In this document: positions 10,657 through 50,444 of the stretch, in pieces | Position numbering within the stretch: position 1 is the stretch's first letter | How the letters are laid out: each line of letters begins with the position of its first letter | Source: a virus | Lineage: Duplodnaviria > Heunggongvirae > Uroviricota > Caudoviricetes | Strand: one strand, 5' to 3' | Virus record (IMG/VR): IMGVR_UViG_3300048793_000046 | Length of the DNA stretch: 64,000 nt | The notes under the pieces: generated by a model | The model's database searches: none | Seen by the model: only the letters and a program-made list of their open reading frames with translations | What the model was told of the DNA's origin: nothing | Position numbers and translations under genes: made by a program

Positions 10657-10976
10657 TGAAACCTTTCAAGATATTCGGTATCGCGCCGACGCGCGAAAAG
10701 TTTCCGTGGGTGATCTTCTTTCTGCTTACGGTGCTGTTCCTGATCGGCGTCTCCCGGCACGCACATAGCGAAGAAGACATCTGGGCCTGCTACGCCTCGC
10801 AGCGCTATCAAGCCATGTCCTCGGGTTGGCCCGCGTGCAACGAGATGAGCTATCTGTGCTCGCGCGTTCAACAGTACCTCCAGTCTCATACTATTGAAGA
10901 GGGCCGCGCCGAAGGTGAAAAACTTCACATCCCGCAGTGGCTCCGTGCGAAAGCCGAAAGGTGCATCCCCAAATGA
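10653..10976 (+). CDS. small membrane protein (107 aa, one transmembrane segment)
   Basis: start chosen at MMKPFKIF; hydrophobic stretch [14 protein letters not shown]. Confidence 0.35.
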
Positions 10977-11980
10977 ACAGAGCGCTGATCACCGGGATCA
11001 CCGGACAGGACGGAAGCTACCTCGCGGAGCTTCTGCTCGACAAAGGATACGAGGTGCACGGTATCAAGCGCCGTGCTTCTTCGTTCAACACTTCGCGCAT
11101 CGACCACCTTCCGGCTCTAAAACTTCACTATGGGGATATGACTGATGGTTCTAATCTTGCTCGTATTATTCAAGAAGTTCGCCCGAGTGAGATATACAAT
11201 CTCGCTGCTCAGTCTCATGTGCAAGTCAGCTTCGAAACGCCCGAATACACCGCTAACGCGGATGGGCTCGGCGCTATGCGCCTTCTTGAAGCGGTGCGGG
11301 CAGTAGGTCCCGGCTACTGCACGCGCTTCTATCAGGCGTCCACGTCGGAACTATACGGCAACTCGGGCGGTTATCTTCGGAACGAAAACACCCCGTTCAT
11401 GCCGCGCAGCCCATACGCCGCTGCGAAGCTCTATGCGTTCTGGATTACGGTGAACTACCGCGAAGCCTATGGCGTCCACGCGAGCAACGGCATTCTGTTC
11501 AACCACGAGAGCCCGCGACGCGGCCCGACGTTCGTCACGCGCAAGATCACCAAGGCGGTTGCCGCGATCTCAACCGGCGCGCTGGACTGTCTTCGCCTCG
11601 GCAATCTCGACGCGATGCGCGACTGGGGCCACGCCCGGGACTATGTCGAAGCGATGTGGCTGACACTCCAGCAAGACGAGCCGGATGACTACGTGATCGC
11701 GACCGGCGAGGCGCATTCCGTCCGTGAGTTTGTCGAGCTTGCGTTCGCCGAAGTCGGTATGGACATCGGATGGACTGGCGAAGGCGTCAACGAGCTAGGT
11801 ATTGATCATGTCAGCGGCCAGCCCGTGATCCGCATCGATCCCCATTATTTTCGCCCAACCGAAGTTGACCTCTTGCGCGGCGACGCGACAAAGGCTATGA
11901 CGAAACTCGGCTGGCGGCCCAAGATCGGCTTCCGCGCGCTCGTCAAGGAAATGGTTGCGGCGGATTTGGAGGATTGTTGA
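10973..11980 (+). CDS. gmd: GDP-mannose 4,6-dehydratase
   Basis: [34 protein letters not shown] plus full-length similarity to the GMD short-chain dehydrogenase fold; start set at the internal ATG 10973. Confidence 0.85.
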
Positions 11981-12789
11981 TGCTTAACCCGGACACACGC
12001 GTCGCCGTCTGTTGCTATTCGGGTGACGGTCATCAAGTCGTCGAAGCGCTGGAGTTCTACTTGCACCATGAGTGCCCGCTCACAGTTCTCTCGCCCGCAG
12101 ACAGCAAGGTCGATGTCAACTATCCGGGCGTGACGAATGTCTTCGCCGGGAAGGCTGCCTACATCGGGCCGGACAGTTTTGACCGGGAAATGCTCCATCT
12201 CGCGGCGCTGTTGCAGTATCCCGAAAACCACTTCCTGATCCATGACGCCGACAGCATCATGCTCGATCCAAAAATCCCGGACTATCTGTACGCCGAGCCC
12301 GATATGGTTTGGTCGAACCAAGTCACCGACGCCATCCCTGAGCATCAGTCGTTCTTTCCCGAGGGCTGGCCGCACGTCGCTTTTCAGCCGCCGTACTTCC
12401 TGAGCCGCAGGACCATCGAAGCGATGCTCGCGGTCAAGGACGATCCCCGCGTCATAAGGGATCATCCGTGCATGCCGTTCATCGATTTCTACATGGTGCA
12501 GTTGACCATCGTCGCCGGGCTGCCGTGGCGGCGACTGATGGATTGCATTTCGTGTCCGATCTCGATAGACCTTCGCAAGGTCAACCCTCCCGAAGCTGAT
12601 CTCGTCACGTATGACATGGGAATGAAGATAGCGTCCAATGCTGTCCTCCGCGAGGGCACAAGCGTCCTTCACTCGGTCAAGAACTCGGTCGCTATCCGCA
12701 CGCTTGCGGGGTTGCGTCAACAATATCTCGCCAATCACCCGGATGCTCAGCCAAAGTTCTTCCCAGCCCCCACAATCGGAAGAGGCTAA
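11974..12789 (+). CDS. hypothetical protein, possible glycosyltransferase-like (IHDADSIML DxD-like motif)
   Basis: lies between gmd and fcl; DAD motif. Confidence 0.4.
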
Positions 12790-13661
12790 TGCTCGATCTG
12801 TCCCGTGTCACGCTTCTCTTCGTTGAAACCCGAGCCCACGCGATCACCAAGCGCGTGATCGATGACTGTCTGGCCAAGGCCGACTTCGGAGACGTGCTGA
12901 TCTATTCTGACAAGCCAGACCTAATCCCGATCTCCGGGGCGCGGCATATCCTCGTTCCAGACTTCCCGGACAAACGGGAGGCCGGACGCTTCTATTATTC
13001 AGAGGCGATGGCCAAGGTCGAAACCGATTTCGCTCTGATGCTGGAATGGGACGGCGGCATATATGACCCGTCGAAATGGAAGCCCGAGTTCTTTGACTAC
13101 GATTACATCGGAGCGCCGTGGCGGGTCCGCGACCAATACGACGTGGGTAACGGCGGCTTCACGTTGATGTCAAAGAAACTGGGGCACTTCATCTGCGAGA
13201 ATGCGGAGAAATATCCCGTCTGCACTGACATCGATATCTGCCGAGCCCAGCGCGAGAATTACGAGGCCGCCGGGTTCAAATGGCCTACGGCGTTGCTCGC
13301 ATCTTGCTTCTCGTGGGAGCTTGGGCTACGCAATCCAGAGCACTTCGGCTTTCACGGCGCGTTCACGTGGCCCGAAGTGCTGCCCAAGGAAGAGCTTGTT
13401 ATCCGCACCGGGCTACTGACCGAGACATCGTACCTGATGGCGAAGATGTATTACCTCGTTCGCGCGGCCCCTGAAATTTTGAAAGACTTGACACCAGAGC
13501 AGGCCGAACGCTATGTCTCGATTTACGGCGAACCGCAACCGCGCATCCCGGGCCACATCGCAGGCCGCTATATGTCTCCGCAACAGCGCGCGGCAATGAT
13601 GCTTGTTCAGGCGCAGCGACAGGGGCTCATCTCTCATCAACAAAAAGGGCTCAAAGCATGA
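12789..13661 (+). CDS. hypothetical protein in the glycan cassette (290 aa)
   Basis: translationally coupled with neighbouring genes. Confidence 0.4.
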   Translation: MLDLSRVTLLFVETRAHAITKRVIDDCLAKADFGDVLIYSDKPDLIPISGARHILVPDFPDKREAGRFYYSEAMAKVETDFALMLEWDGGIYDPSKWKPEFFDYDYIGAPWRVRDQYDVGNGGFTLMSKKLGHFICENAEKYPVCTDIDICRAQRENYEAAGFKWPTALLASCFSWELGLRNPEHFGFHGAFTWPEVLPKEELVIRTGLLTETSYLMAKMYYLVRAAPEILKDLTPEQAERYVSIYGEPQPRIPGHIAGRYMSPQQRAAMMLVQAQRQGLISHQQKGLKA

Positions 13662-14614
13662 AACGAAATAGCCCCATCCTCGTGACCGGCGCGAACGGGC
13701 TCGCCGGGTCTGCCGTTGTCGAGCATCTCCGCGCCAACGAGTTCACGTGCGTCATTCCAATCACCCGGGACGATGTTGATCAAGTTGATCTCCGTGATCA
13801 TAAGGCCGTGCACGATCTCTTCGAGCGCATCGGCGGCGACCGGGGTCCCTTCTACGTCTTCCACGCAGCAGCGACGGTCTACGGCCTCGGCGGCAACATG
13901 GCCAATCAGGGCAAGAGCATTCTCGACAACACGCTGATCAACACTGCCGTCATTGACGCTGCACAGCGTTCGGGCTGTCGCAAGATCACCGTCATGGGTA
14001 CGAACGCCGCATACCCGTGGCCGACACCGCTGCCCTTCAAAGAAGAGAACCTATACAACGGTCGCCCCGACGCGGGCGAGTTCGGCTACGGGCACGCGAA
14101 GCGTCACATGCTAGCGATGCTCGAAGCATATCAACAGAGCTACGGGCTGGAGTATTGCTACATCGTCAGCGGCAATCTCTATGGCCCGCGAGATACGTTC
14201 AACTCGAAGACCGGCCACGTACTACCGTCCCTGATCGCGAAATTCTCCGCTGCCAAAATTACCGGCGGCACTGTGGAAATCTGGGGCGACGGAACGGCTA
14301 GGCGTGACTTCCTGTACAGCAAAGACCTTGCTCGCGTCGTGCAGTTGCTCATGTCGGAAGACATCAAGCCCGGACCGATCAACATTGGTAGCGGAGAGGC
14401 GTATAGCATCCAACGTATCGTCGATTTGCTATGTACAATCTCCGGCGTCAGTGCGGACCGCGTCCGCTGGGATGCCTCTAAACCGAACGGGCGACTGGAC
14501 TGCCGCGCCGATCTCTCGCGTCTTGGGGCACTCGGCTTCTCGCCGAATTACTCAATTGAACAGGGCCTACAGGAGACGTGGGATTGGTTTAAGCGCGCTA
14601 CGGAGCGGGCATAA
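13658..14614 (+). CDS. fcl: GDP-L-fucose synthase (GDP-4-keto-6-deoxymannose 3,5-epimerase/4-reductase)
   Basis: ILVTGANGLAGSAVVEHL Rossmann N-terminus, YxxxK region, length of about 318 aa typical of Fcl/WcaG. Confidence 0.8.
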   Translation: MKRNSPILVTGANGLAGSAVVEHLRANEFTCVIPITRDDVDQVDLRDHKAVHDLFERIGGDRGPFYVFHAAATVYGLGGNMANQGKSILDNTLINTAVIDAAQRSGCRKITVMGTNAAYPWPTPLPFKEENLYNGRPDAGEFGYGHAKRHMLAMLEAYQQSYGLEYCYIVSGNLYGPRDTFNSKTGHVLPSLIAKFSAAKITGGTVEIWGDGTARRDFLYSKDLARVVQLLMSEDIKPGPINIGSGEAYSIQRIVDLLCTISGVSADRVRWDASKPNGRLDCRADLSRLGALGFSPNYSIEQGLQETWDWFKRATERA

Positions 14615-19669: not shown

Positions 19670-20078
19670 GATGCAGCTTGAAGAAACCGAATTTCGAAAA
19701 GTAGTCCGGCTTCTGTGTCATGAGCAGGATCATCTGCCCGTCGCGTTTTCCGATCTCGTCAATGCGCCACTCGACAAGCGCCTTGCCCGCGCCGCTACCC
19801 TGATAAGTCGGGTGCACAGCAATCCAGATCAGATTGAACGCGCCCTTCATCAGCATCGAAGGTCCGAACGCGGCGAAGCCGATTGGCGTCGGAGTGTAAT
19901 CTCGCGAGAGCGGATCACCAAGGTCCATAATCCCGAACGTCGGCGCGAAGTGCCCGCCTCGGAAATACTCGACCATCTGGAGATGACAGCGGTCGGCGGC
20001 TTCGATGCCCCAGTTCTCCAAGACAAGCCCGGAGCAGAACTCGATCTCTCTGTACTTCGGTTCGCGAATGAACATCAC
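19614..20078 (-). CDS. GNAT family N-acetyltransferase
   Basis: AVHPTYQGSGAGKALVEWRI is the acetyl-CoA binding motif A. Confidence 0.65.
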   Translation of the reverse strand: MMFIREPKYREIEFCSGLVLENWGIEAADRCHLQMVEYFRGGHFAPTFGIMDLGDPLSRDYTPTPIGFAAFGPSMLMKGAFNLIWIAVHPTYQGSGAGKALVEWRIDEIGKRDGQMILLMTQKPDYFSKFGFFKLHHVGNEWYLMLKLLKTVEM

Positions 20079-20611
20079 TTGTCCCTGTGACGATAGCGAG
20101 GAATACCCGCCGCCTCTTTGATCGCATCGGCGAACTTGTCGTTCGGACCGCGTGGGTCCTTCGGCTGTTGAAGCTGTTCGTGTCGCGTCGGTTCGAAATT
20201 GTTTCTGATCTCGTCGTCAATCCGCTCGGCAAGCAACAGCACCGAAAGCTTCGGGACGATCATGACTGTATTGGCGCTCTCAGTCATCATGAGATTGATT
20301 TTGTCCTCGCCTTCGAACAAACGGAAGTCTGTGCGATAGACGATGATGGCTTTGTCTGTGCCATAGCCGTAGCCCAGTTCCCAGCACGTGCCGCTGTCCG
20401 GGTCCGGCCCGTCGAGATTGGCAAGAACCAACTGAGCCCAGTCGATGCCTGTCTTGTCAGATTTGAAAATCAGATCAGGCCGGTCGGCGTGATGCTGGCG
20501 CTCTTGCGGAAGAAAAACTTCGTGACCATGAAGTCGAAGCGCCTCTGCGAGAGCGAGATTGAAATCGCACTCGGCTGTTGAGAACAGCGGGCCTGCCATA
20601 TAGATACGCAT
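20075..20611 (-). CDS. nucleoside 2-deoxyribosyltransferase-like protein
   Basis: MRIYMAGPLFSTAECDFNLALAEALRLHGHEVFLPQ matches the NDT/Rcl family N-terminus. Confidence 0.6.
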   Translation of the reverse strand: MRIYMAGPLFSTAECDFNLALAEALRLHGHEVFLPQERQHHADRPDLIFKSDKTGIDWAQLVLANLDGPDPDSGTCWELGYGYGTDKAIIVYRTDFRLFEGEDKINLMMTESANTVMIVPKLSVLLLAERIDDEIRNNFEPTRHEQLQQPKDPRGPNDKFADAIKEAAGIPRYRHRDK

Positions 20612-23562: not shown

Positions 23563-24003
23563 TCATGCGCTTCCGACGCTTGACGCGCGTATGTTTGCTT
23601 CGATGAGCACGTTGTCCAAATCTTTTTTGGATGCGAGCCGTGCGGCGGCGATCTCGCGGTTCTTGGCGATCACCTCTTCATCCCAGAGCGGCAGTCCGGC
23701 GGCCTCGCGCGCTTTGAGCGATGTCTCCAGATGTGCAAAAGCGCGCCACGCGAGTTTTCCCTCGTGAAGCGCGCCATCGTCAGGGTCGAACGTTCCGGTC
23801 TCGATCACGTGACGCACGATGCAGTCAGGATGATCCATCGACTTGCCTTCTGCCCAGTGAAGCGCCTCACCGGGGTTATGTTTTTCGTTGCCGAGTACGG
23901 AAATGCGCGCAACATACGCGGCAGCGTGCGGAAAGTATTTCAAGAAGCCGGTATAGATCGGGGCCTCTTTTCGAAGCTTGCTATCGGTCGGAAGCAAGGA
24001 CAT
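23563..24003 (-). CDS. dATP/dGTP pyrophosphohydrolase-domain-like protein (phage nucleotide pyrophosphatase family)
   Basis: KEAPIYTGFLKYFPHAAAYVARISVLGNEKHNPGEALHW..HPDCIVRH pattern as in phage DUF5664-type proteins. Confidence 0.4.
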   Translation of the reverse strand: MSLLPTDSKLRKEAPIYTGFLKYFPHAAAYVARISVLGNEKHNPGEALHWAEGKSMDHPDCIVRHVIETGTFDPDDGALHEGKLAWRAFAHLETSLKAREAAGLPLWDEEVIAKNREIAAARLASKKDLDNVLIEANIRASSVGSA

Positions 24004-24121: not shown

Positions 24122-24274
24122 AGGGACGCGGGTGCCTCCAATGTCGGCAGTGAGCGAAACGCATAATTGACCCTAGCTCAAAGATTAGTCGCGGAGCCCG
24201 GGGTCATACAAACGCTGCGGCTCCGCGCGACATTTGAGTAAGATACGCACATCCGGCGATCTCTGTCAAGATGG

Positions 24275-24347
24275 CATGAGTGGAAGGAGTTGAACCCTCG
24301 CTGGCACGGTTTTGGAGACCGGCGTGCTACCGTAACACTTCACTCAT
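24275..24347 (-). tRNA. tRNA-Trp (anticodon CCA), CCA not encoded
   Basis: 7-bp acceptor ATGAGTG/CACTCAT, T-arm GAGGG-TTCAACT-CCTTC, anticodon loop CTCCAAA. Confidence 0.55.
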
Positions 24348-24350
24348 AAA

Positions 24351-24427
24351 TGGTACTGCCTTAGCGATTTGAACGCCATCCCATCGGTTCACAGCCGACG
24401 TGCTCATTGCCATCGAGCATAGGCAGC
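24351..24427 (-). tRNA. tRNA-His (anticodon GTG), no G-1, A73, G1:U72; CCA encoded
   Basis: acceptor GCTGCCT/AGGCAGT, canonical T-arm TTCAAAT, anticodon loop CTGTGAA. Confidence 0.55.
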
Positions 24428-24428
24428 A

Positions 24429-24499
24429 TGGTCGCGCACCACGGTTACGATCCGGGCTGACAGCCGTATGAAAGCTATTTCCTCACCAGAGGGAGCGCG
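24429..24499 (-). tRNA. tRNA-like element, anticodon unresolved
   Basis: tgg followed by 6/7 acceptor complementarity and a cacgg-ttacgat-ccggg arm; fold not resolved by hand. Confidence 0.25.
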
Positions 24500-24504
24500 T
24501 TTAT

Positions 24505-24575
24505 TGGCAGCCGCTTTCGGTGTCGAACCGAACTCTTCAAGCTTCAAAGGCTCGTCGGGTCCCGGACCAGCGGCA
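24505..24575 (-). tRNA. tRNA-Gln (anticodon TTG), short D-region
   Basis: T-arm ttcgg-tgtcgaa-ccgaa, anticodon hairpin reading codon CAA, 1:72 unpaired. Confidence 0.4.
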
Positions 24576-24583
24576 AAAATAAT

Positions 24584-24658
24584 TGGCCCTGCTTCCGGGT
24601 GCTGCCCCCGGTTTTCCCGCTTGAAAGGCGGGGCTCTTAGCTGATGGAGGAAAGCAGG
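24584..24658 (-). tRNA. tRNA-Glu (anticodon TTC) with non-canonical T-loop GGCAGCA
   Basis: perfect acceptor cctgctt/aagcagg, perfect anticodon stem cccgc/gcggg, loop reads codon GAA; CCA encoded. Confidence 0.45.
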
Positions 24659-24659
24659 T

Positions 24660-24734
24660 TGGAGCGAGCACGGGGACTTGAACCCCGACCGCAACGCTTG
24701 GAAGGCGCGCGTGCTGCATTGACACTATGCTCGC
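24660..24734 (-). tRNA. tRNA-Gly (anticodon TCC), tentative
   Basis: perfect acceptor gcgagca/tgctcgc, canonical T-arm cgggg-acttgaa-ccccg, loop reads GGA. Confidence 0.45.
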
Positions 24735-24738
24735 AGAT

Positions 24739-24827
24739 TGGCGGAAAGACGGGGACTTGAACCCCGAAGCGGCTTACACCGCCGACAGTTTAGCAAACTG
24801 TTCGTTTGACCATTCACGCATCTTTCC
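24739..24827 (-). tRNA. tRNA-Ser (anticodon GCT), type II with long variable arm
   Basis: perfect acceptor, canonical T-arm, anticodon hairpin acagt-ttagcaa-actgt, variable-arm hairpin gcgg/ccgc; 86 nt. Confidence 0.6.
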
Positions 24828-24831
24828 AAGT

Positions 24832-24909
24832 TGGTCTTGCCGCGAGGACTTGAACCCCGACAACAGTCGTTTAGGAAACGACGGCTCTTTCCAGTTGAGC
24901 TACGGCAAG
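24832..24909 (-). tRNA. tRNA-Arg (anticodon CCT)
   Basis: perfect acceptor cttgccg/cggcaag, anticodon hairpin gtcgt-ttaggaa-acgac, D-stem gctc/gagc. Confidence 0.6.
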
Positions 24910-24914
24910 GAGAT

Positions 24915-24996
24915 TGGTGATCCGGGCAGGATTTGAACCCGCGTTTGCAGCGCCGCTACGGATAATCGCTTAGAAGACGAAACCGGCTACCGGACC
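24915..24996 (-). tRNA. tRNA-like element (79 nt), anticodon unresolved (possibly TCT)
   Basis: CCA, acceptor ggtccgg/ccggatc with G:U, T-arm gcagg-atttgaa-cccgc; internal fold unclear. Confidence 0.3.
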
Positions 24997-25000
24997 CTAA

Positions 25001-25075
25001 TGGAGACGTGCGGGCGAGTTGAACGCCCCTAGCATCGCTTTGCAGGCGAGCACATAGCCGCTCTGACAGCACGTC
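25001..25075 (-). tRNA. tRNA-Cys (anticodon GCA)
   Basis: perfect acceptor and T-arm; loop reads codon TGC; D-arm AGAGCGGCTATGT resembles the unusual E. coli tRNA-Cys D-arm. Confidence 0.6.
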
Positions 25076-25079
25076 GTAT

Positions 25080-25153
25080 TGGCAGCCCCACTCAGTGTTG
25101 ATCTGAGGTCTCGCGGTTCAGAGCCGCGCACTCTCCCGTTGAGCTATGGGGCA
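25080..25153 (-). tRNA. tRNA-Gln (anticodon CTG)
   Basis: perfect T-stem ctcag/ctgag, perfect anticodon stem cgcgg/ccgcg, loop reads CAG; 1:72 unpaired as in the other Gln. Confidence 0.5.
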
Positions 25154-25155
25154 AT

Positions 25156-25232
25156 TGGTCTGCGTAGCAGGCTTCGATCCTGCGGCCTCTCGCTTCCGGG
25201 GCGAGCACTCTTCCAGACTGAGCTATACGCAG
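25156..25232 (-). tRNA. tRNA-Pro (anticodon CGG), apparent C33
   Basis: perfect acceptor ctgcgta/tacgcag, perfect T-arm, anticodon stem ctcgc/gcgag with loop CCCGGAA. Confidence 0.45.
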
Positions 25233-25233
25233 A

Positions 25234-25315
25234 TGGTACTCGCGGCGTGGGTCGAACACGCATTTGCAACTCCATTACGGATACGACGTTCGTAGCGTCG
25301 CTCGGTTACGCGAGT
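25234..25315 (-). tRNA. tRNA-like element with perfect Arg(ACG) anticodon hairpin but aberrant D-arm/variable-region lengths
   Basis: 7/7 acceptor actcgcg/cgcgagt, canonical T-arm gcgtg-ggtcgaa-cacgc, hairpin CGACG-CTACGAA-CGTCG; spacing between elements is non-standard. Confidence 0.35.
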
Positions 25316-25329
25316 GTGAAGTGTTTGTT

Positions 25330-25403
25330 TGGGGCTGCTAGCGGGTTCTGACCCCGCGCCGCCGGTTTGAGGGACCAGCATCCTCCCATTAGACGATAGC
25401 AGC
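25330..25403 (-). tRNA. tRNA-Glu (anticodon CTC), tentative; apparent C33 and T-loop GTCAGAA
   Basis: perfect acceptor gctgcta/tagcagc and T-stem gcggg/cccgc; anticodon loop CCCTCAA. Confidence 0.35.
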
Positions 25404-25407
25404 GTTT

Positions 25408-25482
25408 TGGCTCCCGCAGCACGTTTCGAACGTGCCTTCTCCGATTAACAGTCGGACGCCCTCACCGAGATGGCTCTACGGG
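25408..25482 (-). tRNA. tRNA-Asn (anticodon GTT)
   Basis: canonical T-arm gcacg-tttcgaa-cgtgc, perfect anticodon hairpin tccga-ttaacag-tcgga. Confidence 0.6.
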
Positions 25483-25490
25483 AATAAAAA

Positions 25491-25565
25491 TGGTGGACCT
25501 TCACGGTTACGATCCGTGTCTCCCGCATTGCAAGTGCGGTGTGCTCCCATTATCACTAAAGGCCC
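25491..25565 (-). tRNA. tRNA-Ala (anticodon TGC) with G3:U70; T-loop ATCGTAA
   Basis: perfect anticodon hairpin ccgca-ttgcaag-tgcgg; acceptor GGGCCTT/AAGGTCC gives the G3:U70 identity pair; CCA encoded. Confidence 0.6.
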
Positions 25566-25566
25566 G

Positions 25567-25641
25567 TGGTGCCTAGTCACGGTTTCGATCCGCGCTCTCC
25601 TGCTCTTCACGCAGGCGCTTTCCCAGATTAGCTTACTAGGC
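25567..25641 (-). tRNA. tRNA-Phe (anticodon GAA), tentative
   Basis: perfect acceptor gcctagt/actaggc, perfect anticodon stem cctgc/gcagg, loop reads TTC. Confidence 0.5.
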
Positions 25642-25644
25642 AAT

Positions 25645-25718
25645 TGGTGCGGACAGGGAGAGTTGAACTCCCGCTACTTCGTTGGCAACGAAGCCGACTT
25701 CCGTAATCATTTGTCCGC
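25645..25718 (-). tRNA. tRNA-Gly (anticodon GCC)
   Basis: perfect acceptor, T-arm gggag-agttgaa-ctccc, anticodon hairpin cttcg-ttggcaa-cgaag. Confidence 0.6.
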
Positions 25719-25724
25719 ATTTTT

Positions 25725-25810
25725 TGGTGCTCCATCGAGGTAACGATCCTCGCCAGCCCGAAGGCATCTGTTTTACAGACAGCGCGGCGTCCTTAGCCAC
25801 CTACTGGAGC
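25725..25810 (-). tRNA. tRNA-Tyr (anticodon GTA), type II
   Basis: perfect T-arm cgagg-taacgat-cctcg, long variable arm gcc..ggc, loop tttacag reads TAC; 5' acceptor boundary uncertain. Confidence 0.4.
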
Positions 25811-25814
25811 GTAT

Positions 25815-25891
25815 TGGTTGCGCAGGTTGGAATTGAACCAACAATAAATCAGCTTATGAGGCTGACTAGCCTACCAAGGCTTGTCCGCGCG
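25815..25891 (-). tRNA. tRNA-Met (anticodon CAT; initiator, elongator or Ile2 not distinguishable)
   Basis: perfect T-arm gttgg-aattgaa-ccaac, perfect anticodon hairpin tcagc-ttatgag-gctga; possible 1:72 mismatch. Confidence 0.45.
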
Positions 25892-25901
25892 ATAGAAGAA
25901 T

Positions 25902-25990
25902 TGGCGGAGGGCGGGTAGATTTGAACTCCATGCCTTTCGGCACCCTCGGTTTTCAGGACCGCGACAGAACCCCGTCTGCTTCTGCCCTCC
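25902..25990 (-). tRNA. type II tRNA-like, possibly tRNA-Ser (anticodon TGA); imperfect T-stem
   Basis: 7/7 acceptor ggagggc/gccctcc, variable-arm hairpin, anticodon hairpin cggt-tttcagg-accg; 86 nt. Confidence 0.35.
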
Positions 25991-25994
25991 ATTT

Positions 25995-26070
25995 GGTGAT
26001 CTCCCGGGGAGTTGAACCCCGATCTCCGAGTTTCGGAAACTCGCGCTCTGTCCAGTTGAGCTAAGAGACC
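25995..26070 (-). tRNA. tRNA-Arg (anticodon CCG)
   Basis: canonical T-arm cgggg-agttgaa-ccccg, perfect anticodon hairpin cgagt-ttcggaa-actcg, D-stem gctc/gagc with GG in loop; CCA encoded. Confidence 0.6.
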
Positions 26071-26074
26071 TTTT

Positions 26075-26551
26075 TTATTTCATGCCTTTGCGTCTGACAT
26101 TGCCGCGCCGATCATAAGCTCCAGTGGGCCAAAAACAATCCATCGTGACGCGAGCGATCAAACCATCATCTGTGAACACCGCCGGTCCCTTGAGAGTTTT
26201 GCCGTCTACCGCCTGTTCGAATGCAAGATAGCTTCCGCCGCGATCAGGAGACGCTGGATCAACGAAAAACAAATCCAAGTCCGTAGGCTCATCCAACGGG
26301 ACCGGCACTCCAGCGGCCTTGCACGCCTCAAAGAGAGCGGTTCGGTATCGCTGTATCACCGCGAGATGCATCCGACGATGCGGCGCGTGATGGATCGATA
26401 GCCGCAACAGGGCTGGGAATTGATCGGGAAAGTATTTGACGATGATCTTCATTTCAAAGTCCTTTGGTGGGCCGCTCCGGTTACGATCCGGATCAAGGAA
26501 CAGCCGTCCGCTGCTAAAGAGCTTATAAGGCTCTCCCGTGTCCAACACCAC
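26075..26551 (-). CDS. hypothetical protein (158 aa) embedded between the two tRNA blocks; weak RusA-like resemblance (DLD..DDG)
   Basis: ORF flanked by tRNAs on the same strand. Confidence 0.35.
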   Translation of the reverse strand: MVLDTGEPYKLFSSGRLFLDPDRNRSGPPKDFEMKIIVKYFPDQFPALLRLSIHHAPHRRMHLAVIQRYRTALFEACKAAGVPVPLDEPTDLDLFFVDPASPDRGGSYLAFEQAVDGKTLKGPAVFTDDGLIARVTMDCFWPTGAYDRRGNVRRKGMK

Positions 26552-26561
26552 AGCCCATTTC

Positions 26562-26635
26562 TGGTCTCCGCACGGAGTTCCGCCTTCCGGCCTCCGCCTT
26601 CCAAGGGCGGCGCTCTTCTCACGAGCTTTGCAGAG
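26562..26635 (-). tRNA. tRNA-Pro (anticodon TGG) with GG-containing T-loop GGCGGAA and a GG-less D-loop
   Basis: perfect anticodon hairpin ccgcc-ttccaag-ggcgg, D-stem gctc/gagc, acceptor with one G:U. Confidence 0.45.
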
Positions 26636-26640
26636 CTAAC

Positions 26641-26714
26641 TGGCGCGGCTAGGGAGTATCGATCTCCCGTCATTCGGTTGACAACCGAGCGCTCTACCTT
26701 TGAACTATAGCCGC
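26641..26714 (-). tRNA. tRNA-Asp (anticodon GTC)
   Basis: perfect acceptor gcggcta/tagccgc, perfect T-arm gggag-tatcgat-ctccc, loop ttgacaa reads GAC. Confidence 0.55.
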
Positions 26715-26721
26715 AAAAATT

Positions 26722-26796
26722 TGGTGGGCTCCCACGGTAACGATCCGTGTTCTCATGGGTTAAGAGGCCAGCGCACTACCTTTGTGCTAGGAGCCC
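26722..26796 (-). tRNA. tRNA-Lys (anticodon CTT), weak anticodon stem, T-loop ATCGTTA
   Basis: perfect acceptor GGGCTCC, D-stem GCAC/GTGC, anticodon loop CTCTTAA with only 3 central base pairs. Confidence 0.4.
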
Positions 26797-26797
26797 T

Positions 26798-26872
26798 TGG
26801 TGGACCGCCCCGGTACTGCCCCGGGTTCTTACGGGTTAAAAGGCCGACGTGCTACTTTCCTACTCGCGGTCC
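26798..26872 (-). tRNA. tRNA-Lys (anticodon TTT), weak anticodon stem, T-loop GGCAGTA
   Basis: perfect acceptor ggaccgc/gcggtcc, perfect T-stem cccgg/ccggg, loop CTTTTAA. Confidence 0.4.
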
Positions 26873-26874
26873 GA

Positions 26875-27060
26875 TCAGGACTGCGACGGTTTCAGTGTAG
26901 CCTCAACGCACACCACGATCTGTCCCGTTGCAGGGATGTGATGCACGATCTGGCGCTTCATCTTGAAACGTGTATCGCCCACAGCGCAGAGCGGGCACTT
27001 TTCTGTATCTTGCATGCTCGTCTCCTGTTGTGTTGGTTGACCCTGCTGGTTTCGATCCAA
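26875..27060 (-). CDS. small Cys-containing protein (61 aa, CPLC motif)
   Basis: short ORF inside the tRNA block. Confidence 0.25.
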   Translation of the reverse strand: MDRNQQGQPTQQETSMQDTEKCPLCAVGDTRFKMKRQIVHHIPATGQIVVCVEATLKPSQS

Positions 27061-27108
27061 CTTTCCACGGTTATCGACCGCGTGCCTTAGCCACTAGACG
27101 AAGGGTCA
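27034..27108 (-). tRNA. tRNA-Ile (anticodon GAT), tentative; apparent C33
   Basis: perfect acceptor tgaccct/agggtca, T-arm gctgg-tttcgat-ccaac, anticodon loop TCGATAA. Confidence 0.4.
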
Positions 27109-27112
27109 GTGA

Positions 27113-27187
27113 TGGTGCGTCTTGCAGGGGATGATCCTGCCGCCTCTCGCATGTCGAGCGAGCGCTCTTCCGCTGAGCTAAAGACGC
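27113..27187 (-). tRNA. tRNA-Val (anticodon GAC), tentative; apparent C33
   Basis: perfect acceptor gcgtctt/aagacgc, perfect T-stem gcagg/cctgc, anticodon stem ctcgc/gcgag with loop TCGACAT. Confidence 0.4.
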
Positions 27188-27192
27188 GGAAT

Positions 27193-27274
27193 TGGTCGGA
27201 GGGGTATTTCTACACCCGGAGCGCGTACTGGTCCCCCGCCCTTTCGGGCGAGCCAACGCCATCTCTACCCTCCG
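27193..27274 (-). tRNA. tRNA-like element (79 nt), unresolved internal fold
   Basis: CCA plus perfect 7-bp acceptor cggaggg/ccctccg; G-rich interior with CCC-GAAA-GGG hairpin. Confidence 0.3.
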
Positions 27275-27305
27275 CCGGGCCTGCCTCGTTGCGCTTGCGC
27301 GCGAT

Positions 27306-27380
27306 TGGTACTCCCTCCCGGGATCGAGCCGGGTCATGTCGGTGTGTAGGACCGATGCCTTCCCATCTGGCGCAGGGAGC
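27306..27380 (-). tRNA. tRNA-Val (anticodon TAC), tentative; apparent C33
   Basis: perfect T-arm cccgg-gatcgag-ccggg, perfect anticodon stem tcggt/accga with loop CCTACAC. Confidence 0.4.
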
Positions 27381-27381
27381 G

Positions 27382-27457
27382 TGGTGTGAATGTCGGGAGT
27401 TGAACCCGAAAGGCACGGGGTTTAAGCCCTGCCGCGTTTCCGCTTCGCCACACTCAC
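27382..27457 (-). tRNA. tRNA-like element with TTA/TAA triplet in a 6-7 nt anticodon loop (class I length)
   Basis: CCA, acceptor gtgagtg/cattcac, canonical T-arm tcggg-agttgaa-cccga; stem cgggg/ccctg closes a tttaag loop. Confidence 0.3.
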
Positions 27458-27458
27458 T

Positions 27459-27534
27459 TGGTGTCGGTCGCGGGAGTTGAACCCGCAAGAGTTGGCTTTT
27501 GAGACCACCCATGTTTCCACTTCACCAGACCGAC
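27459..27534 (-). tRNA. tRNA-like element, anticodon unresolved (CAA-like loop CTCAAAA)
   Basis: perfect acceptor gtcggtc/gaccgac and canonical T-arm gcggg-agttgaa-cccgc. Confidence 0.35.
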
Positions 27535-27539
27535 AAAAT

Positions 27540-27622
27540 TGGTACCCCCGGGGAGACTTGAACTCCCAATCCTTTCGGCGCTAGTTTCTAAGACTAGTGC
27601 GTATGCATTCCGCCACGGGGGC
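27540..27622 (-). tRNA. tRNA-Leu (anticodon TAG), type II
   Basis: canonical T-arm gggag-acttgaa-ctccc, perfect anticodon hairpin ctagt-ttctaag-actag, long variable region; 80 nt. Confidence 0.55.
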
Positions 27623-27623
27623 G

Positions 27624-27697
27624 TGGTGCTCTCTGATGGTTACAATCCATCGTCGGCCCCTTACCAAAGGGCAATTCTGTCATTGAACTAAGAGAGC
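27624..27697 (-). tRNA. tRNA-Thr (anticodon GGT); T-loop ATTGTAA lacks C56
   Basis: perfect acceptor gctctct/agagagc, perfect T-stem gatgg/ccatc, loop ttaccaa reads ACC. Confidence 0.5.
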
Positions 27698-27701
27698 GAA
27701 T

Positions 27702-27776
27702 TGGAGCCGATTGCAGGAATTAAACCCGCGACATCCGCGCTACAAGGGCGGCGTTCTATCACTGAACTAAATCGGC
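27702..27776 (-). tRNA. tRNA-Thr (anticodon TGT)
   Basis: perfect acceptor gccgatt/aatcggc, D-stem gttc/gaac, loop ctacaag reads ACA. Confidence 0.5.
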
Positions 27777-27778
27777 AA

Positions 27779-27852
27779 TGGTGCTGGTTAGGTAAATCGA
27801 ATACCTGTTTGCGCCTTACGAGGGGGCTGTTCTGCCACTGAACTAAACCAGC
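27779..27852 (-). tRNA. tRNA-Thr (anticodon CGT)
   Basis: perfect acceptor gctggtt/aaccagc, canonical T-arm aggta-aatcgaa-tacct, loop ttacgag reads ACG. Confidence 0.55.
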
Positions 27853-49978: not shown

Positions 49979-50444
49979 CATCATAGTCGGTCAGCGTAAG
50001 ATCGCGAGGCTGACACATCGGACAAGGCTTTGGCCACGTGAAATTCGTGGATAGGCGGCGAGTGGATGACCAGTCAGTGACGGTTCTGAATGATACGACG
50101 GACTGCGGTCAGACCCGGGGGCAGTACCCGGCACCTCCACCATGGTCGGCGCGAAGTGACATGGATGTCATTCGCCATAGAGCGAGCTACCCAGCGTGGA
50201 GCACGCGCCGACTTTGACGGGGGTGAAACAGGATCGATGGACGCTCGGAAAGTCGTAAAGTGAACTCGGTATTGTTCCGCCGTTATCGGGCTACAAACTA
50301 AATGTGAACGACAACGTTCCCATGAACGAAATGCGCCTCGCGGCGTAAGTAGTTCGGGGCCGGTCACCTAGCAACAGAACGACCAAACGAAACGCCCGGG
50401 CAGTGATGCCCGGGCGTTTTTGTTTTTCAGTTGGCCGCCGAGAT

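Follow-up and report, generated by a model that had tools for sequence, protein, structure and literature searches.

The tRNA Array and Its Setting

The window, by which we mean the whole 64,000 nucleotide stretch analyzed here, carries a co-oriented tRNA array on its minus strand (24272..27852). As detected with ARAGORN and Rfam, the array consists of 27 ARAGORN tRNAs, one tRNA found only by Rfam, and a tRNA-like gene with a CAU anticodon. Its anticodons cover all 20 amino acids, and all 27 ARAGORN tRNAs end in a discriminator base and an encoded CCA. The tRNA-His gene (24351..24427, minus strand) is next to last in the array, and a tRNA-Trp lies 3 nt beyond it.

Several members of the array are irregular. 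Immediately upstream, a non-canonical tRNA-like gene (24429..24499, minus strand) carries the anticodon CAU; its minimum-free-energy fold is a cloverleaf, and its A-CCA end stops one base before G1 of tRNA-His. With its CCA this gene is 71 nt long; its D-stem of four pairs is capped by a tetraloop, and the 8/9 connector is lacking. It was missed by both ARAGORN and Rfam in the window, and its homologs in two other viral contigs (L212 and L176) were called tRNA-Met by ARAGORN. Compensatory changes are found across six contigs (L180, L212, L224, L238, L277, and L278). The tRNA found only by Rfam (25333-25403, minus strand; 43.7 bits) has a CUC (Glu) anticodon, C33 in place of U33, and a C73 discriminator. 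One ARAGORN tRNA (27382-27457, minus strand; 43.1 bits with Rfam) was called without an assigned type and with a two-base "anticodon" (ta).

The array also contains an ORF of 158 aa (26075-26551, minus strand), with a probable start at MKIIVKY that would give a protein of about 125 aa. The ORF had no match in Pfam, PHROG, or PDB. Five further contigs with the tRNA-His family described below conserve it within their own tRNA arrays (41-88% identity). A 92-nt "tRNA-Ile(tat)" called by ARAGORN at 26465-26556 overlaps the 5′ end of this ORF. Elsewhere in the window, positions 10937-14614 (plus strand) encode a likely GDP-mannose 4,6-dehydratase and a likely NAD-dependent epimerase, which flank a DUF5672 protein. 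Also encoded are a likely nucleoside 2-deoxyribosyltransferase (20075-20611, minus strand) and a likely protein with the N-terminal domain of a dATP/dGTP diphosphohydrolase (23563-24003, minus strand), and these two genes are a hint of modified DNA bases.

The nearest uncultivated relatives found through the exonuclease (74-90% identity) have 0-10 tRNAs and lack tRNA-His. The array has thus expanded recently in the lineage of the window. Among relatives identified by their DNA polymerase, no tRNAs lay within reach.

Structure and Register of the tRNA-His Gene

ARAGORN calls a tRNA-His with a GTG anticodon at exactly 24351..24427. The gene is 77 nt long with its encoded CCA (24351..24353) and folds into a 7/5 cloverleaf. 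On the minus strand it reads U(-1), then GCUGCCU-AU-GCUC-GAUGGCAAU-GAGC-A-C-GUCGG-CUGUGAA-CCGAU-GGGA-UGGCG-UUCAAAU-CGCUA-AGGCAGU-A-CCA. The 5′ flank ends in ...GCGCGACCA-U, and the CCA is followed by UUU and then tRNA-Trp. The first-pass annotation had described the acceptor as GCTGCCT...AGGCAGT-A-CCA, with a G1:U72 pair, A73, and no extra 5′ G, and the minus strand reads just so: G1 (24427) pairs with U72 (24355), the discriminator is A73 (24354), and the nucleotide at -1 is U (24428). This U alone separates G1 from the CCA with which the tRNA-like gene upstream ends.

The core of the molecule is unusual. A8-U9 precedes the D-arm, where U8-A9 is usual. Counted with a D-stem of four pairs, the D-loop, GAUGGCAAU, spans nine nt (24406..24414), and in 10 of the 11 family members introduced below the bases at its two ends, G14 and N22, can pair. 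The Rfam alignment places an insertion at 24400, where one nucleotide is added after position 26 and before the anticodon stem. It is offset by a four-nt variable loop, and the outermost "sixth" pair forms in only six of the 11 family members. The GUG anticodon (24390..24392) lies in the loop CUGUGAA (24394-24388), which has A37 as compared to G37 in host genes.

Because all 27 array tRNAs end in a discriminator and CCA, the 3′ register of tRNA-His is secure. Given 101 nt, the Rfam tRNA model (RF00005) aligned 24354-24427 end to end with model positions 1-71 in the same register as ARAGORN, automated prediction being the check that had been proposed. The score with filters relaxed was 34.0 bits, against a gathering score of 29 (E-value 3.9e−6). 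The same model missed the gene on the whole window at the gathering threshold and on 501 nt at an E-value of at most 1, apparently due to its speed filters.

We also considered other registers. A corrected fold placing an extra 5′ G opposite C73 had been named as the result that would overturn the original description; no fold of this tRNA-His gives such a placement. Reading G24427 as G-1 needs an A8:N66 pair, which can form in only one of the 11 family members, and leaves a U73-ACCA tail, so we rejected it. An 8/4 architecture, with an eight-pair acceptor and a four-pair T stem, was rejected as well, as it depends on the same 8:66 pair (1/11), whereas the 7/5 form pairs 95.9% of cells.

A Family of Phage tRNA-His Genes

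A BLASTN of tRNA-His and a megablast of the array against GenBank phages found no relatives and no cultured phage with a similar gene. A BLASTN of the Bradyrhizobium tRNA-His against phages matched tRNAs of all kinds and was uninformative. The exact anticodon-arm pattern had no match in IMG/VR. A pattern limited to the D-arm and the anticodon loop, which left the acceptor and 3′ end unconstrained, matched ten uncultivated viral contigs in IMG/VR. Their tRNA-His genes are all 77 nt, align to the window gene without gaps, and are 71-87% identical to it.

In the alignment of these ten genes and the window gene (n = 11), the cloverleaf pairs 95.9% of stem cells, compared to 72.9% in shuffles and 26-47% in slid controls. 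Both sides have changed in 12 of the 22 stem pairs. The covariation score is 0.588 vs. 0.150 for shuffles, and none of 500 shuffles reached 0.588. Three of the four stems have compensatory substitutions; variation in the D-stem is one-sided only. Covariation is free in acceptor pairs 5-7 and in the anticodon and T stems, and the pairs G1:U72, C2:G71, U3:A70, and G4:C69 are invariant, the first as a G:U in 11/11. Nine members have A as the discriminator, and the other two have U and G, respectively; none has C. At position -1, nine members have U, one has A, one has C, and none has G. All 11 phages retain an intact anticodon loop, T-loop, and acceptor end. One contig (L224) has a 23-tRNA array with the gene order of the window, in which tRNA-His is syntenic.

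The tRNA-His is real, and it is under purifying selection for its structure and for the top four acceptor pairs. That it is selected as a structured tRNA follows from the pairing in excess of the shuffled and slid controls, the pairs changed on both sides, and the synteny with L224. A decayed or non-translational tRNA-like sequence, i.e., a pseudogene or decoy rather than a working tRNA-His, would account for the two Rfam runs over larger stretches that missed the gene, for the unusual core (A8, G14, the base inserted after 26, and the short variable loop), and for the absence of tRNA-His from the nearest relatives. We find such decay highly improbable given a score above the Rfam gathering score once filters were relaxed, the compensatory substitutions in three stems, the loops and acceptor end kept intact in 11 phages, and the syntenic place within the array of L224.

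Comparison with Known tRNAHis Identity Classes

The Rhizobiales, Rhodobacterales, Caulobacterales, and Hyphomonadaceae together form the RRCH clade of Alphaproteobacteria. The delta-G-1 tRNAHis of this clade was reportedly described by Ardell and Andersson in 2006 and by Wang and coauthors in 2007. Its partner is a HisRS of a divergent type, with Gly123 in motif IIb and an insertion in the anticodon domain. Yuan et al. (2011) define the delta-G-1 group by A73, G1-U72, a C:G as second pair, a GUG anticodon, a D-loop of invariably nine nt, and the lack of G-1 (PMC3064791). The conserved C:G second acceptor pair is printed as "C3-G71", and the numbering of that paper is ambiguous (PMC3064791). 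The tRNAHis of the delta-G-1 Alphaproteobacteria is reported to start at position 1, and the HisRS of C. crescentus loses 91-fold with U72C, 3-fold with A73C, 3-fold with G37A, 5-fold with an added G-1, and 91-1000-fold with anticodon mutations (PMC3064791). For canonical HisRS, loss of G-1 costs more than 100-fold (PMC3064791).

The window gene has the GUG anticodon, no G-1, A73, G1:U72, and C2:G71. The last pair is found in all 11 family members and in the Hyphomicrobiales genes discussed below. Like the delta-G-1 tRNAHis of the RRCH clade, the window gene is 77 nt long with an encoded CCA, and its U(-1) is that of Bradyrhizobium and the Xanthobacteraceae. The D-loop would have the nine nt of the class if the D-stem is read as four pairs; pairing of G14 with N22 would leave seven. 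The phage gene differs from the RRCH tRNAHis in having A8-U9 not U8-A9, G14 not A14, A37 not G37, U3:A70 not A3:U70, a base inserted after 26, and a four-nt variable loop, and in being phage-encoded. The bases that follow G18-G19 are C-A-A-U, not U-U-A, with A at 20a in place of U20a. We regard A37 as a minor deviation, since G37A costs only 3-fold in C. crescentus.

The canonical bacterial arrangement, an encoded G-1:C73 with G1:C72 as in E. coli, is not present. The window gene shares with it the GUG anticodon, the cloverleaf, and the encoded CCA, but lacks G-1 and has U at -1, A73 not C73, and U72 not C72. Across the phage family, the invariant U72 and the looser N73 parallel the kinetics of the C. 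crescentus HisRS (PMC3064791).

Cellular tRNA-His Genes

We scanned species-representative genomes for CTGTG...GTTCRANNC...TACCA. There were at least 120 loci, and the matches listed were almost only Hyphomicrobiales. Among the matches listed are at least 80 complete tRNA-His genes with U72-A73-CCA, and 73 of 80 carry Alphaproteobacteria, Hyphomicrobiales, or generic Proteobacteria labels. The labeled genera among these matches include Bradyrhizobium, Xanthobacter, Pseudolabrys, Tardiphaga, Ancylobacter, and others. The Hyphomicrobiales genes (Bradyrhizobium, Xanthobacteraceae) have the same U(-1)-G1...U72-A73-CCA layout as the phage gene. The Bradyrhizobium type reads U, then GCAGUUG-UA-GCUC-AGUUGGUUA-GAGC-G-CCUGU-CUGUGGA-ACAGG-AGGUC-GGUGG-UUCGAGC-CCACC-CAACUGU-A-CCA; like the phage gene it is typically 77 nt, and its D-loop has nine bases, as does that of the phage gene when the D-stem is read as four pairs. 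The comparison with host tRNA-His that had been proposed for the Rhizobiales, Caulobacterales, and Rhodobacterales holds for the layout in Hyphomicrobiales, while no tRNA-His of Rhodobacterales or Caulobacterales was among the matches listed. With no more than 64-70% identity to the Hyphomicrobiales genes, the window gene represents a phage lineage with an unusual core and not a recent copy or capture of a host gene.

In five genomes (L036, L041, L104, L106, and L141) and one viral contig (L169), the 3′ half of a Bradyrhizobium-type tRNA-His is present as an exact copy next to unrelated DNA. The pattern resembles the attachment-site duplications that elements integrating into tRNA-His leave behind.

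The base at -1 is T in 74 of the 80 cellular tRNA-His genes among the matches listed, which bears on how the U at -1 of the phage gene should be read. RNase P might cut one position upstream, as it does to give the G-1:C73 of E. coli, so that a mature U-1 pairs with A73 in an eight-bp acceptor. The minimum-free-energy fold of 24351-24428 does include U-1:A73, and positions -1 and 73 can pair in nine of the 11 family members. However, two family members break the pair without compensation (L176 with A-1/A73 and L276 with C-1/U73), and tRNA-His is not special within its own array, where -1 is U in 16 of 27 tRNAs (C in eight, A in three) and -1/73 is pairable in 14 of 27. At least 74 of the 80 host-type genes listed share U-1/A73, and yet such tRNAHis is reported to start at position 1 (PMC3064791). 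Given the T in 74/80 of the genes listed and the U in 16/27 array tRNAs, we read the U before G1 as ordinary context rather than a paired -1 residue. A selected U-1:A73 pairing was rejected on the uncompensated exceptions and the array-wide pattern, and we hold retention of U-1 to be very unlikely.

The matches listed also include six Acidobacteriota MAGs (L035, L054, L064, L101, L102, and L122) with a tRNA-His(GUG) that has G1:U72, A73, and CCA. They belong to the Blastocatellia, the Thermoanaerobaculia, or are unclassified, and two of them (L064 and L102) have a G at -1 opposite A73. The Blastocatellia tRNA-His, with the acceptor GCUGCCG/CGGCAGU, shares six of seven acceptor pairs with the window gene and is 72% identical to it, slightly closer than any Hyphomicrobiales gene among the matches listed. 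One doubtful 70-nt match among those listed is from a Micrarchaeota MAG (L148). The first-pass annotation took the signature to be characteristic of a clade of Alphaproteobacteria. The published definition of the class (PMC3064791) and the Hyphomicrobiales genes agree with this, but the signature is not exclusive to that clade, as the six Acidobacteriota MAGs carry it. A delta-G-1-like identity rule may reach beyond the Alphaproteobacteria into the Acidobacteriota.

Other Phage tRNA-His Genes

Alphaproteobacterial phages have been found to carry G-1-less tRNAHis with A73 or U73 within their tRNA clusters (Mukai et al., 2017, PMC5389517). These (8/4) phage tRNAHis share with the window family their place in a phage tRNA cluster, the lack of G-1, A73 (U73 in one member of our family), and irregular tRNAs adjoining (PMC5389517). 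They differ in architecture: the window gene has an intact 7/5 form with a U49:A65 pair and no 8/4 arrangement, a distinction drawn from the published description of those tRNAs (PMC5389517). A wider IMG/VR scan found at least 34 tRNA-His with U72-A73-CCA among the matches listed (80 loci). They come from several unrelated phage lineages, and thus the phenomenon is common.

Phages of the same host clade can also break the rule. Seven Brevundimonas jumbo phages, vB_BpoS-Kikimora and six relatives, have a tRNA-His with C1:G72, C73, and U at -1. That of vB_BpoS-Kikimora is annotated as tRNA-His (L279, 7890-7965), with the CCA present. Like the window gene, these tRNA-His lie in a large array, have an RRCH-clade host, and have no G at -1. 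Unlike the window gene, which obeys the U72/A73 rule of the host clade, they have neither that form nor the canonical G-1:C73. A phage tRNA-His thus need not copy the rule of its host.

Host Lineage

The proposal that the tRNA-His points to the host lineage of the phage is supported by other features of the window. An alpha-type two-piece tmRNA (RF01849) lies at 50025..50389 on the plus strand and scores 132.7 bits. It is kept beside the PrimPol(-helicase) gene in two relatives (L280, 5414-5787, 116.7 bits; L281, 5539-6340, 102.6 bits). The DNA similarity of the tmRNA region is weak and restricted to one Sinorhizobium phage and one Rhodobacter phage. The best cultured match to both the DNA polymerase (PolA, 42.7%) and the PrimPol (31.9%) is Roseobacter phage RDJL3. 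The GDP-mannose 4,6-dehydratase has its best matches in Rhizobium and Chelatococcus plasmids (69-71%). By our reading of the alignment, the tag encoded by the phage tmRNA is (A)NDNVPMNEMRLAA. Against an RRCH host, the phage tRNA-Tyr lacks C7 and R8, two class-informative features published for RRCH tRNA-Tyr (PMC3937112).

Taken together, the genes in the window support an alphaproteobacterial host as the probable one. The tmRNA indicates "alphaproteobacterium", and the tRNA-His would narrow this to the RRCH clade (PMC3937112). As a host-clade mark the tRNA-His has limits, since Acidobacteriota genomes and the non-conforming tRNA-His of Brevundimonas phages provide counter-examples. The six Acidobacteriota MAGs with G1:U72, A73, and CCA, and the Blastocatellia gene that at 72% identity is slightly closer than those of Hyphomicrobiales among the matches listed, could mean that the same identity rule is at work in a host outside the RRCH clade, e.g., one of the Acidobacteriota. 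The alpha-type tmRNA in the window and two relatives, the Roseobacter phage as the only cultured relative, and the resemblance of the tmRNA region to Sinorhizobium and Rhodobacter phages only, all weigh against it. The Acidobacteriota D-loops among the matches listed are mostly 7-8 nt, not nine, and binning errors in those MAGs are possible. We judge a non-RRCH host improbable.

No HisRS, Thg1, or aminoacyl-tRNA synthetase domain was found in the 38 window ORFs of at least 141 aa that were scanned, which include every ORF of at least 400 aa. The tRNA-His presumably relies on the host HisRS. The first-pass annotation held that the tRNA is matched to the synthetase of its host; from the 64 kb of phage genome in the window, we infer such a match. 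A different use of the gene would be as substrate for a Thg1-like enzyme that adds G-1 opposite A73 after transcription, to serve a canonical G-1-dependent HisRS. In eukaryotes, Thg1 adds G-1 opposite an A73 discriminator, and the 64 kb are only part of the phage genome. No Thg1 or synthetase domain is among the 38 ORFs, though, the invariant G1:U72 is specific to the delta-G-1 class and not to Thg1 substrates (PMC3064791), and an alphaproteobacterial context already offers a G-1-independent HisRS. Addition of G-1 is extremely improbable.

Proposed Function and Significance

We consider it likely that the gene encodes a working phage tRNA-His(GUG) that belongs to the delta-G-1 identity class, is charged by an RRCH HisRS, and marks an RRCH host; the RNase P site, the charging, and the identity of the host are predicted from the DNA. 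The tRNA would be transcribed within the minus-strand array of about 29 tRNA genes. Host RNase P would cut between U-1 and G1, leaving a mature 5′ end at position 1 with no extra nucleotide. The CCA end is encoded, and host exonucleases would trim the short UUU trailer before tRNA-Trp. Charging would be by the divergent HisRS of the RRCH clade, which would read the GUG anticodon and U72, and A73 to a lesser degree, in place of G-1:C73. The charged tRNA would supply CAC/CAU decoding during infection, and its presence would mark the host as a member of the RRCH clade.

The only features this leaves unexplained are the unusual core of tRNA-His (A8-U9, G14:N22, and the base after 26) and the fixed tRNA(CAU) partner one base upstream. 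They could belong to a phage-only lineage of G-1-less tRNAHis that has kept the acceptor-end and anticodon determinants of the host, has rebuilt its core (A8-U9, G14:N22, and the base after 26), and always follows a non-canonical tRNA(CAU) after a single base. Members of this lineage might serve as specialized replacements that are still charged by the host HisRS while escaping host tRNA-targeting nucleases or modification enzymes, under a rule that may extend to the Acidobacteriota. We offer this as a speculative and rather unlikely extension.

The existence of G-1-less A73/U73 tRNAHis in alphaproteobacterial phages was already known (Mukai et al., 2017, PMC5389517), and the mechanism is unchanged by our findings. 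The identity of tRNAHis is one of the few rules of translation that differ sharply between bacterial lineages, and for this reason a phage tRNA-His can be a readable mark of the host clade. For an uncultivated phage such as this one, the host would be narrowed from "some alphaproteobacterium", as the tmRNA indicates, to the RRCH clade. Over 11 phages, U72 is frozen and N73 is looser, an evolutionary record in agreement with the in vitro kinetics of the C. crescentus HisRS and a natural confirmation of the weight of these determinants, with U72 greater than A73.
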